A DNA stretch of 64,000 bases from NCBI GenBank assembly GCA_043825875.1, contig JBDRRF010000076.1, forward strand, positions 128,001 through 192,000. The letters are read 5' to 3'. The notes under the pieces were generated by a model. The model did no database searches, was not told the origin of the DNA, and saw only the letters and a program-made list of their open reading frames with translations. Both the position numbers and the translations under genes were made by a program. Of the stretch, positions 44,222 through 52,585 are shown piece by piece. The stretch's first letter is position 1. Every line of letters starts with the position of its first letter. This stretch comes from Pseudomonadota bacterium (GTDB lineage: Bacteria > Desulfobacterota > Desulfobacteria > Desulfobacterales > RPRI01).

Positions 44222-44297
44222 TCCCCAGTAGCTCAGCAGGTAGAGCAAGTGGCTGTTAACCACTTTGTCCGCGGTTCGAGTCCGTGCTGGGGAGCCA
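44222..44297 (+). tRNA. tRNA-Asn(GTT)
   Basis: 76-nt cloverleaf TCCCCAG...CTGGGGA-GCCA; anticodon loop CTGTTAA; GGTTCGAGTCC T-arm. Confidence 0.97.
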
Positions 44298-44305
44298 AAC
44301 AAATC

Positions 44306-44343
44306 AAGGGCTTAGATAAGTTTTAAATCTAAGCCTTTTTTTA
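44306..44343 (+). terminator. Element-supplied tRNA terminator
   Basis: AAGGGCTTAGAT...ATCTAAGCCTTTTTTT. Confidence 0.7.
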
Positions 44344-44363
44344 TTCCCCACGTTATTCCCCAC
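44342..44363 (+). repeat. Integrase arm-type sites (left)
   Basis: TATTCCCCAC twice, 12-bp period; the same pair is at 52386-52407. Confidence 0.75.
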
Positions 44364-44450
44364 ATTTTAACTTGAAAATAAAAAAAGGCGGATGAAATCA
44401 CCCGCCCCCTTAAATTCTTTCAAAAGCCTTTCCGGATCTTTACGCTTATT

Positions 44451-45478: not shown

Positions 45479-45522
45479 GGGTCCTTCCAGAGGTCTTTCG
45501 ATATTAGGGGTAATTCGCACCC
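45479..45522 (+). other. cos-like site B
   Basis: GGGTCCT-N17-ATTAGGGGTAATTCGCACCC. Confidence 0.6.
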
Positions 45523-45579
45523 GTCTATTTTTCTACATGTGATGATTTTTCATAAGTACCTAATACCATGACATAATCA

Positions 45580-45933: not shown

Positions 45934-46014
45934 GGCATAACTTTTAAAAACTGCTGTTGTTTTTTCTTTAAAATTACAACCCGATTTTGTAACTTTGTGT
46001 CTAAAAAAAGGGCA

Positions 46015-46058
46015 GGGTGCGAATTACCCCTAATGGAAAAAAACTTTTAGGAGGACCC
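46015..46058 (-). other. cos-like site A (upstream of the terS-like gene)
   Basis: Minus strand GGGTCCT-N17-ATTAGGGGTAATTCGCACCC; identical blocks to site B, different spacer. Confidence 0.6.
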
Positions 46059-46071
46059 GCACCTTTTCCGG

Positions 46072-46818
46072 TTAACTTGCGCTTAAAGTTTCAAGGTATT
46101 GGTCATGCAATTCCGGTTGATCATGTATAACGGCACGAACAGCCTGTGCCATTGACATGTTATGTTCCGAAGAATACTGATTAACCGCTTCCATAAATGG
46201 CTCTGTCGTATGTTCTACCTTTGCCATAGGTTCACTCTTTGGCGCCTTGGCTTCATCTATCAGGTTGTTAACGTATGATTCATGCAGATCCGGGTTTTCT
46301 TCTGACACGGCACGAACAGCCTGTGCCATTGACAAGTTATGTTCTGAAGCATACTGATTAACAACGTCCATAAAAGATAGTTTGGTTTCTGTCTGGACTG
46401 AAGCTTTGCCTTCCTCTTTTTGTTTGAGACAGATATGATCCGTCCAAAGTTTCGGATATAGCTCTTGACATCTAAGCGTTGCTACGCCCTTTGATTGTTC
46501 TTGGTGTTCCCACTGATACCTTGAAACAGCCGCCTCAAAAGTCAAAGGGATTCCACCCGGGACACCTTGCTTGCCTGTATCCTTTACTTCTTCAGGCTCA
46601 ACGGCTGCATCTGTGCTTATTAAATGGTTAAAATAACTCTCACCGTTTGGGAATTGTTTCTGAAGCTCTTTATCGCGGAAAAACTCACGATCTGCACTTA
46701 TTTTTAGCAGTAATTCTGACCCTTTAATCTCGCTCGGTTCCCCATTTTCCAGAATATGCCGATAAAAGCTTAATGCTTCCATTGTGTTTTCTGCAGGACT
46801 CAAATTATTATCCATCAT
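46072..46818 (-). CDS. Hypothetical protein with 2-3 helical repeats resembling a phage scaffold C-terminus
   Basis: FMDVVNQYASEHNLSMAQAVRAV..NPDLHESY and FMEAVNQYSSEHNMSMAQAVRAV..QPELHDQY. Confidence 0.7.
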   Translation of the reverse strand: MMDNNLSPAENTMEALSFYRHILENGEPSEIKGSELLLKISADREFFRDKELQKQFPNGESYFNHLISTDAAVEPEEVKDTGKQGVPGGIPLTFEAAVSRYQWEHQEQSKGVATLRCQELYPKLWTDHICLKQKEEGKASVQTETKLSFMDVVNQYASEHNLSMAQAVRAVSEENPDLHESYVNNLIDEAKAPKSEPMAKVEHTTEPFMEAVNQYSSEHNMSMAQAVRAVIHDQPELHDQYLETLSAS

Positions 46819-47968: not shown

Positions 47969-48685
47969 TCATACCGCCACCCGATCTCTTAACTTTTGGT
48001 TTAAATAACCCGGCTTCCAATGCTTTTTTGGAATAAGAAAAACCCGCCAAACTCTTTCGCCTTCATAGGTATCATATGGTTCAATTAAAAAGTTCTTTTG
48101 AAGGCTTTTTATAGCATCCCCCACACTTCGCCTGTTGATTCCGGCAAATTCAGCTAACCGCCCAATTTCAGCACTACACAACTCCCAGCGTCGTTTTGCA
48201 AAACGCTCTTTGAACTCAAGGTTATCATATTCAACGTTCTCATCTTCTTCGGCATCATAATATGAGAAATATCTCATTACTGGATAAAGTGCTTTTGCTG
48301 TTGGTTTGAGTTCTGACCATGTGCCGCTTCTAATAATCCCATTATAAAAGAAGAACGACCGGCCATTTTCACCCTTTTGAGGAAATTTCAATTTATAGTA
48401 CTTACCCCGTTTTCCGTGCCGGGTCAGAAAATACTCCCATGTAAACCCAGGAAAACCGTCAAGGTCTTTAATACCTTGCCGTACGGTTTTAATATCTAAG
48501 CGCGATAGTGCAGCAATTGTTTCTTGACCCGGAAATGCTTTACCGTGTTCATCACAATGACAAGCAATTACAGGAAGAACCGCCTTTGCTGCTGTTGATA
48601 TATTTGACCAGTTCATATTCTCGTTCCATCTTTTATCGAAACGAAAAAACAGCGTCCAATCAATATCAGCCGAAAAATGATACAT
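47969..48685 (-). CDS. Replication initiator-like protein with tandem winged-HTH domains
   Basis: WSNISTAAKAVLPVI...AFPGQETIA..TVRQGIKDL and WSELKPTAKALYPVM...LAEFAGINRRSVGDAIKSL; adjacent to iterons; ATG 48685 after TGTGAGG. Confidence 0.75.
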   Translation of the reverse strand: MYHFSADIDWTLFFRFDKRWNENMNWSNISTAAKAVLPVIACHCDEHGKAFPGQETIAALSRLDIKTVRQGIKDLDGFPGFTWEYFLTRHGKRGKYYKLKFPQKGENGRSFFFYNGIIRSGTWSELKPTAKALYPVMRYFSYYDAEEDENVEYDNLEFKERFAKRRWELCSAEIGRLAEFAGINRRSVGDAIKSLQKNFLIEPYDTYEGERVWRVFLIPKKHWKPGYLNQKLRDRVAV

Positions 48686-48725
48686 TATTATCGCCCTCAC
48701 AGCGCAACCGCCCCACAAGAAGTAA

Positions 48726-48787
48726 TCGGAAGAGAAACGAGGTGTGAGGTTCCTTGCCTATCGGCGCGCGCCGCCTATCTCTTCCGA
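48726..48787 (-). ncRNA. Structured RNA motif (int-alpA-like), copy upstream of rep
   Basis: UCGGAAGAGA/UCUCUUCCGA stem; UAGG-hairpin-CCGAUAGG; loop CCUCACA complementary to the rep RBS. Confidence 0.65.
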
Positions 48788-48928
48788 AATTCAAAATCTG
48801 CAACTGGTTTTTGTTTTGGTTATTAAATGCGTCAAGTGAACGGTTTGAGCAACCCTGGGACATAGTATCAGGCTGACACATGCCGGAAGCTGAAAACCCG
48901 CTTCTTAGAACCTCTGGTGGCTTCATGC

Positions 48929-49126
48929 TTATGCACTCAACGACTTTTCAGGATCAATCCGGTGTGAGTCTATAAAAGACTCAATATCTTTAAGCCGGTA
49001 TCTGACAGAACGCCCGATTTTAATAAATGGAAGTCCACGGCTCATAAAACGATCATTTCGTAAAGTGAATACGCTTTTACCGATAATTTTTGCTGCTTCT
49101 TTTTCGTTGATAATTCCTAAGCTCAT
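48929..49126 (-). CDS. AlpA/excisionase-like HTH protein
   Basis: INEKEAAKIIGKSVFTLRNDR...GLPFIKIGRSVRYRLKDI; RBS AGGAG. Confidence 0.88.
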   Translation of the reverse strand: MSLGIINEKEAAKIIGKSVFTLRNDRFMSRGLPFIKIGRSVRYRLKDIESFIDSHRIDPEKSLSA

Positions 49127-49323
49127 ATTTACTCTCCTTTTTTCAATGTACTTCTTTTAAAAAACAAAAAAGCCACAAGATTATTTATCCTGTAGCTATA
49201 GAGTACTACTATTTTTTTCTAAGTCAATTATTTAAAATGATTATAGGAAGTTAGCTGATATTTTAAACTTTAGAATATCAGCTTTTCTTTTGATAAATAA
49301 GAGGGTTTTACAGTTATTAAAGT

Positions 49324-50370
49324 TTAAACCCTTTTCAGGTATAATGGTATATATATTAACCGGAGAGTGTTTTCGCTGAGGTATAAGTTGAACTTTTCAA
49401 TATGAACGGTATCTCTTGTTATGCTTTTAAGCAAAAAGGGGTTTCTTTTGATCTTTTGTAAAAAAGCATAAAGATCTATTGCAAAACCGCTATTGCTTTT
49501 AATCTTATAAGGTTTACTTCTCTCTTTTAATTTTATTTCACCTTTATTATTTGTAATTGCTTCATTTGCAAGAAAGTATTCTATAATTTTAAAAAGAATT
49601 TGATCTCTGGGATTAATTCTTATTTCTCGTTCTTTTTCTTTTTGCTTTATTTTTGCAATGCTTTTCTTTTTGCTTTCCAGGTATTTCTTTTCGGCTGCTG
49701 GCCGTAATTCATCACTTTCACTCATAAACCGATGTATTAAAAATGCGTCCATTTTTGCTCTATTAATTGTTGCTGCTCGTTTTGAGTACGTTCGGGCATC
49801 TTCAAGATACTTCATAGAAGAACTATCTTCTTCAAATCTCATACCTTCCACTAAAAAACTTTTTACAGAGAATATTGCCATTTCAATAGCAAACAGATTA
49901 AACAGTGCCTCCGAATCGATTTTTTCCCTCGCGCCTGGACTTACTCCATTAGTGCAAAGTGCCTCTCGCCATATTACCTCTTCTGGAATGCCACATTCGC
50001 CTTTCATCCCTGAATAGTTGTTACGATATCTTTTAAAAAGTGCTGCTGAAGCATTTAAACTATCCGTGTAAATAGAATCTGCTCCCCGTTTGTAAATAGC
50101 GCGTAAATCTTCAAGAAATTTTGCAGGAAAACCGATAAGGCTTTCAATAACCTTTGAGGAAGGCCAAAGAGAATTCCCTAAGCATGGCACGTTATCTTCA
50201 AGGTGAAAACAAACAATAAAATTTGTGCGGCATTCTCTTATAATTAAAAGGCATTCTTGGAAGTATTTACTTTCAATTTCCAAAGATTCCAACCGCTGAA
50301 TATCTCCAAATATCGGGCATCGTTCATTATAAAATTCTGTTTTATAAGGATTGTTTTCAAGTTTATTCAT
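49324..50370 (-). CDS. Hypothetical protein (element cargo or regulator)
   Basis: 348-aa ORF between the TA module and alpA; no motif recognised. Confidence 0.7.
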   Translation of the reverse strand: MNKLENNPYKTEFYNERCPIFGDIQRLESLEIESKYFQECLLIIRECRTNFIVCFHLEDNVPCLGNSLWPSSKVIESLIGFPAKFLEDLRAIYKRGADSIYTDSLNASAALFKRYRNNYSGMKGECGIPEEVIWREALCTNGVSPGAREKIDSEALFNLFAIEMAIFSVKSFLVEGMRFEEDSSSMKYLEDARTYSKRAATINRAKMDAFLIHRFMSESDELRPAAEKKYLESKKKSIAKIKQKEKEREIRINPRDQILFKIIEYFLANEAITNNKGEIKLKERSKPYKIKSNSGFAIDLYAFLQKIKRNPFLLKSITRDTVHIEKFNLYLSENTLRLIYIPLYLKRV

Positions 50371-50403
50371 TGCTTGTCCATTTGCAATGCGTCCTGAAAT
50401 TTA

Positions 50404-50460
50404 TTGAGGGAAGCTGGCAGGACATTTCCAGCTTATCGGCCCGTCGGCCTATCCCTCAAA
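50404..50460 (-). ncRNA. Structured RNA motif (int-alpA-like), full copy
   Basis: UUGAGGGA/UCCCUCAA stem; UAGGCC-GACG-GGCCGAUAAG; AGCUGG/CCAGCU hairpin with loop GUCCUG. Confidence 0.65.
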
Positions 50461-50471
50461 AGTATTTGTAA

Positions 50472-50828
50472 TCACATAAGCACCCGGTAATCAATCTTGA
50501 GTGCATCGCCAAATAACCGGGCATTTTTCCGGCCTATAACCCTTTTCCCGTTTTCCATTTCAGAAATGTGACGCTGAGGGATTCCGGTCAATTCGGAAAG
50601 TTGCCCTTGCGTCAAACCCTCTTTATGCCTTGCGCCTGATAGGGCGACACCGGGAGAATTGTCTTTAAATTCAGGAAAGGCATCTCTCCAGGGAATAGTA
50701 TCCGATGCATCCTTATAGCCGATAGACTTCATCAACTTGACGGCCTTATCTTTCTCCGACACCGGCCCGGAGAACGTTAATACAATGCTTTTAGTACGGC
50801 GCTTTTTCGTGTGTTCCAGCATAAACAA
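50472..50828 (-). CDS. XRE-family antitoxin (HigA-like)
   Basis: ARHKEGLTQGQLSELTGIPQRHISEMENGKR; overlaps the toxin 3' end. Confidence 0.85.
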   Translation of the reverse strand: MFMLEHTKKRRTKSIVLTFSGPVSEKDKAVKLMKSIGYKDASDTIPWRDAFPEFKDNSPGVALSGARHKEGLTQGQLSELTGIPQRHISEMENGKRVIGRKNARLFGDALKIDYRVLM

Positions 50829-51072
50829 CCTCGATCAATTGTATTTCATTATCAATAATCTGCCAAACCGCAACATAGGTCGGCTGACCCTTTTTTAAAT
50901 GGCAATGGTGCCTCTGATCTTTCAGTTTGCCATAATTTGGCCAGTTGCCCCTTATCGGCCCTTTGAGTTCAATCTCTCTCAACAGGGCAAAAAGAGATTT
51001 CTTCGCCCTGACAGGCAACCGGTCAATCATCTTGTTTATCCGCCTGGGAATTACCACCTGCCATTTAATCAT
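50791..51072 (-). CDS. RelE/HigB-like toxin
   Basis: GPIRGNWPNYGKL..HHCHLKKG.PTYVAVW..EVVYAGTHEKAPY; toxin-first arrangement. Confidence 0.8.
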   Translation of the reverse strand: MIKWQVVIPRRINKMIDRLPVRAKKSLFALLREIELKGPIRGNWPNYGKLKDQRHHCHLKKGQPTYVAVWQIIDNEIQLIEVVYAGTHEKAPY

Positions 51073-51162
51073 GATAATAATATACCTTTTTTTAGTATCA
51101 AATCAAGATTTATTTTTTATCGTTTACATTTGCCGCTTCTTATCGGCCCGTCGGCCTATCCC

Positions 51163-52332
51163 TCAAACTTCGTTTGCTGCTTTAACCTTTGATGTTTTGT
51201 TCGCTGGCTTGTTTATTATATCCCCTGCAAGCGCTGAGGCTCTTTTCAATGCGTCATCTCGCAAGTGTGCATACCTTTGAGTCATTAGCGGGCTCTTATG
51301 AGTCAGAAGCCTTTGCAAGGTGTATAAGTCAACTTGCCCAGAGCTTGCCAACACAGACGCATAAACATGACGGAGCCCATGCATCGGCCTAAATCCAACA
51401 GGAAGTCCAGCCTTGTTTCGGATACGGTCAACGCTTTTTCTATTCAAAGTAGTTAAATGAGATCCTTCCCTTTGCCCTGGGAAAATCCATCCATTACTTC
51501 CTGCTTTTTCTATTTTTTCTAATACAGCTAACGCAGAGCCGTTTAAAGGGATACTCTGATCTTGCCCGCCCTTTGGGTTACGGATTGTAATAAAACCCCG
51601 CTCAAAGTCAATGTCCTGCCATTTTAACCGGAATATTTCGCCCCGTCTCATGCCTGTATAAAGTGCAAGTTTCATAATACTTGCCGTTGTCTGATCTTCA
51701 TCTCTCTCTAAAACAGCCAGTAAAGATTTAATCTGATATTCTGTTAGATCTTCTGTTGTTTGGTTGTTCAATCTTGGGATTTCAATTTTAAAAGTAATAG
51801 GAGAAGTCTTGCCCTTTTTCACGCCATAATTGAGAGTCCGGCGAAGGATTTCAAGCACCCTTGCTGCTGTTGTCTTATGTCCCTTTTTTAATAACCCCAA
51901 ACGGAGCCGATCAACATCAAGCGGAAGAAGTTGACCCGGTTCTTTATCGCCAAGCACCTGCCTTATGTGAACATCGAATTTTCTTTTCTCCGCATTTATA
52001 ATTTTATTGTATGGATTATTTTCACAGTATGAATCCCAAAGTTTCGCAATAGTCCATCGGGTATTTACAGCTTCCTTCCTTGCCTTTTCAACTTCTCTTT
52101 TTTCTGTATTTGAAGTTTGATTCCCTTCAATTTTTTGTGCCCGGATACGCGCTGCCTTTGCAGGAGTCATATCATCTTGGAATTGACGCCCCACTTTTTC
52201 ATCAATTGCTTTCCCTGCTTTCCGATAACGGATATAATAAATCCTTTCCGGCCGGCCTGTAACTATTCCCTTGCTTTCAATATAATATACTCCAGGATAT
52301 TTTGTCTTGATTCGTAAAAATGATTTTGGCAT
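51163..52332 (-). CDS. Tyrosine integrase
   Basis: TGMRRGE, HGLRH, LLTHKSPLMTQRYAHL; N-terminal arm-binding domain; ATG 52332 after AGAGG. Confidence 0.95.
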   Translation of the reverse strand: MPKSFLRIKTKYPGVYYIESKGIVTGRPERIYYIRYRKAGKAIDEKVGRQFQDDMTPAKAARIRAQKIEGNQTSNTEKREVEKARKEAVNTRWTIAKLWDSYCENNPYNKIINAEKRKFDVHIRQVLGDKEPGQLLPLDVDRLRLGLLKKGHKTTAARVLEILRRTLNYGVKKGKTSPITFKIEIPRLNNQTTEDLTEYQIKSLLAVLERDEDQTTASIMKLALYTGMRRGEIFRLKWQDIDFERGFITIRNPKGGQDQSIPLNGSALAVLEKIEKAGSNGWIFPGQREGSHLTTLNRKSVDRIRNKAGLPVGFRPMHGLRHVYASVLASSGQVDLYTLQRLLTHKSPLMTQRYAHLRDDALKRASALAGDIINKPANKTSKVKAANEV

Positions 52333-52348
52333 TTTAAACCTCTTTTTG

Positions 52349-52407
52349 TTCCCCACACTACACAATAATTATAACCACTGCTTTTTATTCCCCACACTAT
52401 TCCCCAC
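52349..52407 (+). repeat. Integrase arm-type sites (right)
   Basis: TTCCCCAC at 52349; TATTCCCCAC at 52386 and 52398. Confidence 0.75.
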
Positions 52408-52532
52408 ACATAAATTAAATATACAGGTAATAAAAAGTAAGTCAATAAAAATAATACTCAATAATAATCTATTATTTCAAGGTATTTAATGACATAAATA
52501 AAAAGGAAGGTAAATTAAGGTAAATAGCTTAA

Positions 52533-52585
52533 AAGTGGCTGTTAACCACTTTGTCCGCGGTTCGAGTCCGTGCTGGGGAGCCAAA
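52533..52585 (+). repeat. att repeat (duplicated 3' part of tRNA-Asn)
   Basis: Identical to 44247-44299; lacks the 5' acceptor strand and D-arm. Confidence 0.95.

Follow-up and report, generated by a model that had tools for sequence, protein, structure and literature searches.

The RNA family int-alpA (Rfam RF02996, typed 'Gene; sRNA') is the closest described relative of a structured RNA leader found in a 64,000-nucleotide stretch of a Pseudomonadota genome (GenBank assembly GCA_043825875.1, contig JBDRRF010000076.1, positions 128,001 to 192,000; GTDB order Desulfobacterales; hereafter, the window). The family, which reportedly goes back to Weinberg et al. 2017 with the motif unnamed in the main text, has a three-way junction with UAG and GANA junction bases and a consensus tail carrying a word complementary to the consensus loop. 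In the leaders analyzed here, the loop of the third arm (L3) has two downstream targets. T1 corresponds to this tail word, and T2 is usually displayed by a hairpin, P4, in front of the start codon of the next gene. The Rfam model ends at T1 and includes neither P4 nor T2, no loop pairing and no function. The self-complementary loop of the second arm (P2) and the two P2 length classes described below are also absent from it. This architecture points to a translational regulator that pairs with its own copies, in either direction of control. A full-text literature search, with most subscription journals and the Weinberg 2017 supplement outside its reach, found no function for int-alpA and nothing on RF02996.

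The leader would work like antisense and ribosome binding site (RBS)-occlusion systems but lacks several of the features that define them. C4 of phages P1 and P7 is an antisense immunity RNA alongside CI of phage P4, and the Rfam scan of the window gave no C4-type match. The CI RNA is a small structured phage and satellite RNA with duplicated complementary targets in its own transcript, and its processed form acts in trans (PMC4825925). The CI RNA has targets on both sides of itself, which lead to transcription termination, whereas both targets of our leader lie downstream and one covers the RBS. Of the upstream region in which a target of the CI or C4 type would lie, positions -17 to -3 were tested and showed no specific pairing. 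Docking by a palindromic loop does not appear in the portion of the source that deals with CI. At the IsrK locus of prophage Gifsy-1, an RNA sets translation by acting in trans on the longer transcript of the same locus, as proposed here (PMC4825925). However, IsrK activates translation and needs a terminator for its short form, whereas such a terminator was seen here in four related loci only, and the Rfam scan of the window gave no match to IsrK. In IncI1 and IncB plasmids, a hairpin loop pairs near the RBS of the initiator gene repZ and competes with a trans-acting RNA (PMC8053102). The repZ pseudoknot is an activating one that requires a leader peptide and has a distinct antisense RNA as its inhibitor, while our leader has two tandem targets and no conserved leader peptide.

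The two loop types found at P2 in the window also have counterparts in retroviral dimerization. The HIV-1 dimerization initiation site has a six-base palindrome, as in copy C, and MoMuLV and MoMuSV have GACG loops, as in copy B, which form a two-base-pair kissing homodimer in MoMuSV (PMC7357161). The retroviral loops link genomes for packaging, and the likeness is one of loop design with no sequence relationship. T4-like homing endonuclease genes carry RBS hairpins that restrain translation of the nuclease (PMC2988022), and several homologues of our leader precede HNH, AP2-HNH and EndoVII genes. The T4 hairpins, however, are single stems removed by a late promoter, with no junction, decoy or self-pairing loop. 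Literature searches found neither junction leaders of homing endonucleases nor, at listing level, leaders of this kind with palindromic-loop dimers. If our reading is correct, an mRNA leader that pairs with its own copy would be a rare functional RNA homodimer in bacteria; functional RNA oligomers are described in a review as rarely observed (PMC7357161). The comparison turns an orphan motif into a specific, testable mechanism.

Two copies of the leader, B and C, precede orf348 and the putative replication initiator gene rep, respectively (Table 1). Both fold as P1-UA-P2-GAUA-P3-P1' with different stem sequences, and both have UAG after P1 and GANA between P2 and P3. Copy B scores 39.3 bits against RF02996 (model positions 1-71; gathering cut-off 35.8 bits) and folds better than its shuffled sequences (z = -3.5; 0 of 200 as good). 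It lies between the integrase gene (int) and an AlpA-like gene, as the family name is read (int, cassette, copy B, orf348, HTH_17 gene). Copy C follows the HTH_17 gene and leads rep, below the detection limit of the Rfam model: the scan gave no match to it even at E ≤ 10. With a covariance model of hand-set structure made from 75 other copies, it scored 18.3 bits (E = 0.013 by rough calibration), the second best score in the window. We consider copy C to be a divergent int-alpA relative outside formal membership. A third, half copy (copy A; 9.7 bits with our own covariance model) is an exact 29-nt duplicate of the 5' half of copy B and the sole such duplicate among the parsed motifs (74 with at least 1 kb upstream). 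Since it is located at the int stop codon, it and copy B form a direct repeat on the two sides of the cassette.

A sequence-only reading of the window had described the two full copies, and its coordinates, loop complementarities, 9-nt spacing and mini-open reading frame (mini-ORF) were all correct. The loop sequence CCUCACA of copy C is complementary to UGUGAGG, 9 nt before the ATG that is in frame with rep, and GUCCUG of copy B to CAGGAC (50396-50391), ahead of the mini-ORF. Its comparison to int-alpA holds for copy B but not, by Rfam, for copy C, and it had missed half copy A, T1 of copy C and the self-complementary P2 loop. In matching each loop to its own RBS, it had set T2 of copy C beside T1 of copy B: CAGGAC is not the site at the Shine-Dalgarno position of orf348, which is GGACA.

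Homologous loci were gathered by Rfam searches of 151 genomes of the phylum and 151 of the order, and further loci by patterns that fixed the junction only and never the loops. A structural parser yielded 137 motifs in 398 records, 116 of them distinct. Five were dropped (L070, L216 and L388 as non-canonical, L123 and L352 for a long P3), and the remaining 111 were reduced to 102 non-redundant copies at 80% identity. Removal of 15 without an ATG or GTG 24-50 nt after P1 left 87, of which 84 had targets in both target regions (L019, L143 and L392 lacked one). A second set of 48 long-P2 copies was gathered separately, with start codons taken irrespective of ORF length. Since the search patterns bias the P1 and junction positions, we make no covariation claim from them. 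The MAFFT alignments were out of register and no pair counts were taken from them. The excluded L123 is a counter-example, with two tandem repeats at the T1 and T2 positions that its long loop matches poorly; it is possibly a decayed or mis-parsed copy.

In the 87 copies, the T1 region paired with its own loop at -7.1 kcal/mol and with foreign loops at -2.9 kcal/mol (z = -19), and the T2 region before the start codon at -6.1 and -3.3 kcal/mol (z = -13). None of 10,000 permutations was as extreme as either value. Loop pairing in the control regions was not significant (coding, z = -1.5; upstream, -17 to -3, z = -1.0). The 14 loops without an anti-Shine-Dalgarno (anti-SD) word gave the same signal (z = -7.4 for T1 and -5.9 for T2), as did the 48 long-P2 copies (z = -15 and -11). 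Because kin are not independent, loops were also swapped between disjoint nearest neighbours, and the own loop was superior in 37 of 42 swaps for T1 and 33 of 42 for T2. At the level of sequence comparison, L3 is thus shown to covary with both T1 and T2, and the loop-RBS covariation on which the sequence-only reading had staked its case is borne out across homologues. Among 87 loops tried on the target sites of the window itself, at most 6% of the foreign ones paired as well as the own loop (percentiles of 0.01 and 0.00 for T1 and T2 of copy B, and 0.06 and 0.01 for those of copy C). CsrA-type protein sites were rejected because the words vary with the loop, and a hammerhead or other ribozyme was rejected in the absence of an Rfam match.

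The two targets are presented differently. T2 lies inside P4 in 67 of 84 copies, a share that drops to 34% after spacer shuffling, while T1 is unpaired, 4-15 nt after P1, and inside a hairpin in only 4 of 84. P4 begins at most one base from the end of T1 in 49 of 67 copies, and the linker 5' of T1 is poor in G (32 of 641 bases). The anti-SD match is better at T2 in 64 copies and at T1 in 9, whereas L3 pairs more strongly with T1 than with T2 in 53 copies versus 19 (28 versus 13 in the long-P2 set). T1 therefore looks like a decoy. Since the T1 and T2 helices share at least three loop bases in 81 of 84 copies, one loop cannot hold both targets. The single RBS-sequestering pseudoknot of the sequence-only reading is not supported as proposed, because T1, the pseudoknot-type partner, is usually not the RBS: an ATG or GTG stands behind it in 16 of 84 copies, near chance by a rough estimate. 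In four loci (L327, L336, L370 and L382), a hairpin resembling an intrinsic terminator lies between T1 and T2 or the RBS and would yield short and read-through isoforms, as for IsrK. No intrinsic terminator was found 3' of either copy in the window.

The P2 loop contains a four-nucleotide palindrome in 41 of 68 distinct P2 sequences, compared with null means of 10.6 and 16.9 and a maximum of 28 in 5000 shuffles. These 41 include 11 different palindromes, seven further P2 have GACG-type loops, and palindromic loops recur in 36 of 50 long-class copies. The self-complementarity of the apical loop thus appears to be kept through sequence change, the mark of kissing-loop homodimers. Pairing of the P2 loop in cis with the downstream region was tried and rejected (z = +1.8). 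The length of P2 is also constrained. Among 29 Rfam-found copies, P2 is 10-14 nt long in 25 and 23 nt in four, with none at 15-22 nt; a search permitting 15-36 nt gave 50 non-redundant copies, 37 of them at 23-24 nt and none above 25 nt. Palindromes are found in 0 of 6 copies at 15-18 nt and in 32 of 38 at 22-24 nt (p = 1e-4), and T1 shows no outward shift in the long class. By A-form geometry, 10-11 nt more per hairpin would add a half turn that flips the loop of a monomer, while the full turn added across a symmetric dimer would keep the two junctions phased. The P2 length classes and the palindromes fit a phased homodimer.

These P2 data bear on two other explanations. RNase III prefers approximately two turns of duplex, and the classes of ~12 and ~23 nt equal one and two turns. 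Two P2 hairpins might therefore open into an extended duplex of one or two turns that a nuclease such as RNase III would cut, and the L3 pairings would then be of secondary importance. However, unpaired bases stand on either side of the palindrome in the long-class loops, a feature of kissing loops that would leave the extended duplex mismatched, and the reads of one RNA run pass through the motif without end pile-ups. The strong T1/T2 covariation would also need a role of its own, and we regard such dimer-triggered decay as very improbable. Alternatively, the leader may be a switch or timer that acts in cis only, with L3 on T1 in the on state and refolded onto the T2 loop in the off state, or with a host or helper factor setting the balance; the palindrome would then be structural or incidental. 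Both pairings look sterically possible in cis with the same loop bases, T1 is made first, and the leaders of two rep homologues offer one target and no palindromic loop. This explanation would nonetheless leave the 11 P2 palindromes, the 10-11-nt step and the palindrome loss at intermediate lengths unaccounted for, and we consider it unlikely.

We favor, at somewhat less than an even chance, a model in which each copy is a three-armed RNA leader that acts as a brake, responsive to RNA concentration, on the translation of the gene that follows. When a transcript is alone, L3 would pair in cis with T1, since T1 is made first and usually pairs more strongly, and the RBS hairpin would stay usable. 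A rough geometric estimate (~9 free nt to span 13 bp) places T1 within reach of L3 in cis. The fixed position of T1 in the long class fits a cis partner, while T2, with its long tether and loop display, fits a trans target. As transcripts accumulate, a second copy, either full length or a core trimmed of the T1 tail, would dock by P2-P2 kissing, and its L3 would cap T2 and block initiation. Protein per mRNA would thus fall as the RNA accumulates. In this island, copy B would limit orf348, and copy C would limit Rep in a feedback resembling copy-number control; the differing loop sequences would keep the two channels largely apart. Whether int-alpA in general is a portable riboregulator that counts its own mRNA copies is, in our judgement, evenly balanced. 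Such a phased homodimer, formed through a palindromic loop with no ligand, protein or antisense gene, would shift the second loop between decoy and RBS, setting rep and cargo dosage in satellites and restraining selfish nucleases in phages, with loops as private channels. If true, it would provide satellites with compact control of Rep dosage and synthetic circuits with a 90-nt recodable feedback or threshold part.

Several observations weigh against the brake. T1 is usually the stronger target, and a swap to T2 would cost energy unless stacking from the kissing interaction compensates for it or T1 is missing in the partner. The strength of P2 self-pairing does not correlate with the T1-T2 difference (rho = 0.08), 20 of 68 short P2 loops have neither a four-nucleotide palindrome nor GACG, and the 23-24-nt class could stem from a single insertion, making the 10-11-nt step one event; the 23-mers average just 50% identity and occur with both P1 types. 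In the window, the fold of copy C is not clearly better than shuffles (z = -1.6; 12 of 200 as good), and its centroid retains P1 only; the inner arms are weakly defined, though the UAG and GANA junction bases are present. T2 of copy B is weak, and the B loop pairs equally well with the copy C sites through G-U pairs (-5.7 versus -5.4 kcal/mol). Among rep homologues, the leaders of L310 and L312 have three arms and a single anti-SD target, and inspection showed no palindrome in their P2 loops; L309 and L311 have no motif directly before rep. RNA run X24, described below, showed no end pile-ups and no trimmed core, although an RNA of 55 nt would probably be lost from its library. Control of the opposite sign has a precedent in IsrK (PMC4825925).

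The opposite sign is also conceivable for our leader. A lone transcript would cap its own RBS by pairing L3 with T2 in cis, and the P2-P2 dimer would move each L3 to the T1 of the partner, freeing the RBS when transcripts are abundant, such as late in infection or following induction. The palindromes and the phasing are compatible with both signs, and T1, usually the stronger helix, abuts P4 and could stack on it (49 of 67 copies). IsrK is a case of activation by the short isoform of the locus itself (PMC4825925), and the terminator between T1 and T2 in the four related loci would supply an abundant T1-only isoform. However, pairing with T1 is reachable in cis and T1 is transcribed before T2. 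The T1 tether, moreover, is no longer when the bridge grows by a helical turn. We consider this threshold activation rather unlikely.

The genes upstream bear on a further possibility, proposed in the sequence-only reading, that one pseudoknot hides the RBS and is melted by ribosomes from the upstream gene or the mini-ORF. In 84 of 96 copies with enough upstream sequence, a long co-directional frame ends at most 300 nt away. In these 84 copies, the upstream stop codon lies 13-17 nt before the UAG in 33, 18-22 nt before in 15 and 0-12 nt before, inside the stem, in only 3; in three more loci the motif UAG itself is the upstream stop. The commonest gap between stop and P1 is 7 nt, also when the upstream gene is not an integrase (Fic, HicA, HTH, terminase), which would put a ribosome at the base of P1. 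A distance of 7 nt is approximately the closest that a helix can stand to a terminating ribosome without unwinding, and docking of the terminating ribosome at the P1 base is possible. Of 42 long-class copies, 8 lack a nearby stop and carry a -10 box immediately 5' of P1. Since both placements appear to keep P1 intact, ribosome relief is unlikely as a general rule. In line with this explanation, the window has a mini-ORF overlapping the start of orf348 and an ORF of 86 codons running across copy C. The mini-ORF, however, is not conserved, with a start behind T1 in the same 16 of 84 copies, and a search of 400 genomes of the order gave no homologue of the 86-codon ORF. The explanation also leaves T1 and the palindrome without a role, and we think it quite improbable. 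A fusion of upstream gene and cargo by readthrough or frameshifting was rejected, because the frames are random (22/14/15) and mostly closed. A promoter as the general cause of the stop spacing was rejected as well, with only a weak TAnnnT excess in the first set; a TAnAAT box occurs in 9 of 102 copies of the first set and 13 of 50 of the long class.

The motif is transcribed in a relative of the L387 locus. In one stranded RNA run (X24), the informative one of four, all 84 reads have the orientation usual for the sense strand, and coverage extends from the 3' end of int through the motif, with 19 reads continuing into T1, T2 and the ATG. HTH_3, Fic, HicA or RelB-like/DUF29 genes, or relatives of the 93-aa gene of the window, often lie directly 5' of the motif (L010, L015, L049, L138, L267, L284, L312 and L675). 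In L312, a toxin-antitoxin-like pair separates int from the motif, the same arrangement as in the window. The 5' flank of the motif may be a hotspot for insertions.

The genes led by the motif belong to no single family. They include genes for HNH-type, AP2-HNH and EndoVII nucleases, glycosyltransferases and integrases, and many unrelated unknowns. Since the motif leads so many unrelated genes, it behaves as a portable leader. In L012 (598-1770) and L314 (8637-9764), the integrase gene is directly led by the motif instead of preceding it. L047 is a second element with two copies, 1.5 kb apart, whose P2 and P3 loops differ and whose loops each fit their own T2 best. Homologues of rep occur in 7 of 400 genomes of the order, five with a readable leader, and no relative in viral contigs was confirmed. 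The rep gene of L313 is led by a complete motif whose loop is different and has two sites that match it, and L311 has the motif 5' of a 343-aa cargo gene, in the position of copy B. The leaders of L310 and L312 lack the UAG/GANA junction and may be a separate or degenerate family. int-alpA is widespread in mobile DNA: of 151 genomes drawn from the phylum, 18 have a match over the Rfam cut-off, and among 5426 E. coli genomes a single query found 28 with related int-motif regions. The E. coli islands have the order int, motif, DUF6387 or hypothetical gene, HTH regulator; in one island of this integrase group (L403, 3846-6110), BREX genes replace the cargo and HTH genes of its relatives.

Table 1 Features of the window, with coordinates counted from its first nucleotide
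Feature	Position	Strand	Remarks
Copy B, three-way junction	50404..50459	-	P1 50459-50452/50411-50404; P2 50449-50438 (GACG tetraloop); P3 50433-50412; L3 50427-50418
Copy B, T1 (proximal, putative decoy)	50390..50396	-	7 bp with L3, -8.9 kcal/mol
Copy B, hairpin P4	50368..50389	-	6 bp; contains orf348 start codon; loop holds T2 GGACA (50379-50375), 5 bp with L3, -5.4 kcal/mol
Mini-ORF (MDKQ, stop)	50367..50381	-	Overlaps orf348 ATG (50370); not a conserved motif part
Copy C, three-way junction	48726..48787	-	P1 48787-48778/48735-48726; P2 48775-48763 (palindromic GCGCGC); bulged P3; L3 48751-48743
Copy C, T1 (proximal)	48711..48717	-	7 bp with L3, one G-U, -8.7 kcal/mol
Copy C, hairpin P4	48692..48704	-	Displays T2 (48701-48695), 7 bp with L3, -9.6 kcal/mol, at Shine-Dalgarno position
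Copy A, half copy	51139..51167	-	P1 5' strand, UA and P2 with GACG loop; no P3, no targets
att repeat, island end	44247..44299	+	3' part of tRNA-Asn (44222-44297); 53-nt exact direct repeat with 52533-52585
att repeat, opposite island end	52533..52585	+	53-nt exact direct repeat with 44247-44299
Tyrosine integrase gene	51163..52365	-	Pfam Phage_integrase, E 5e-30; stop within P1 5' strand of copy A
Toxin-antitoxin-like cassette	50472..51072	-	93-aa ORF and HTH_3 protein; between copies A and B
orf348	49324..50370	-	Cargo gene led by copy B; start backed by homologues
HTH_17 (AlpA/excisionase-like) gene	48929..49126	-	Pfam, E 2e-6
rep, likely replication initiator	47969..48685	-	238 aa; led by copy C; ATG at 48685; Pfam HTH_36, E 1e-13; PHROG replication initiation protein, E 4e-10

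The copies lie in a satellite-like island of 8.3 kb at tRNA-Asn, bounded by the 53-nt att repeats. On the minus strand, it encodes the integrase, the toxin-antitoxin-like pair, orf348, the HTH_17 gene and the HTH_36 protein, followed by iteron-like repeats and a weak small-terminase match. Because of this gene order, the layout appears to be satellite-like, resembling phage-inducible chromosomal islands. Size, order and HTH suggest a toxin-antitoxin function for the cassette, which has a promoter-like site at 51101-51074. Its 93-aa protein is present in 38 of 201 genomes of the order and matched nothing in Pfam and NCBIfam. For orf348, four homologues align from the same methionine, and Pfam, PHROG, NCBIfam, PADLOC, Atlas and Foldseek gave no match; its structure model, built from 5 sequences, has a predicted local distance difference test score of 58. 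One idea is that it may activate the excisionase gene. The three 22-nt iteron-like repeats and an inverted arrangement 3' of rep (47959-47831) are likely an origin.

Just 5' of the HTH_17 gene (49267-49171, minus strand), a terminator-like hairpin ending in a run of U lies closely behind a promoter-like site, an arrangement that is possibly an attenuator of the alpA-rep operon. A 248-aa ORF (46072-46818) has an internal 105-nt repeat and no family above cut-off. A 57-nt inverted repeat of 75% identity (45479-45535 and 46002-46058) brackets a 117-aa ORF with the weak small-terminase match and is possibly packaging-related. Short repeats close to both att sites (44338-44364 and 52331-52408) resemble integrase arm-type sites.

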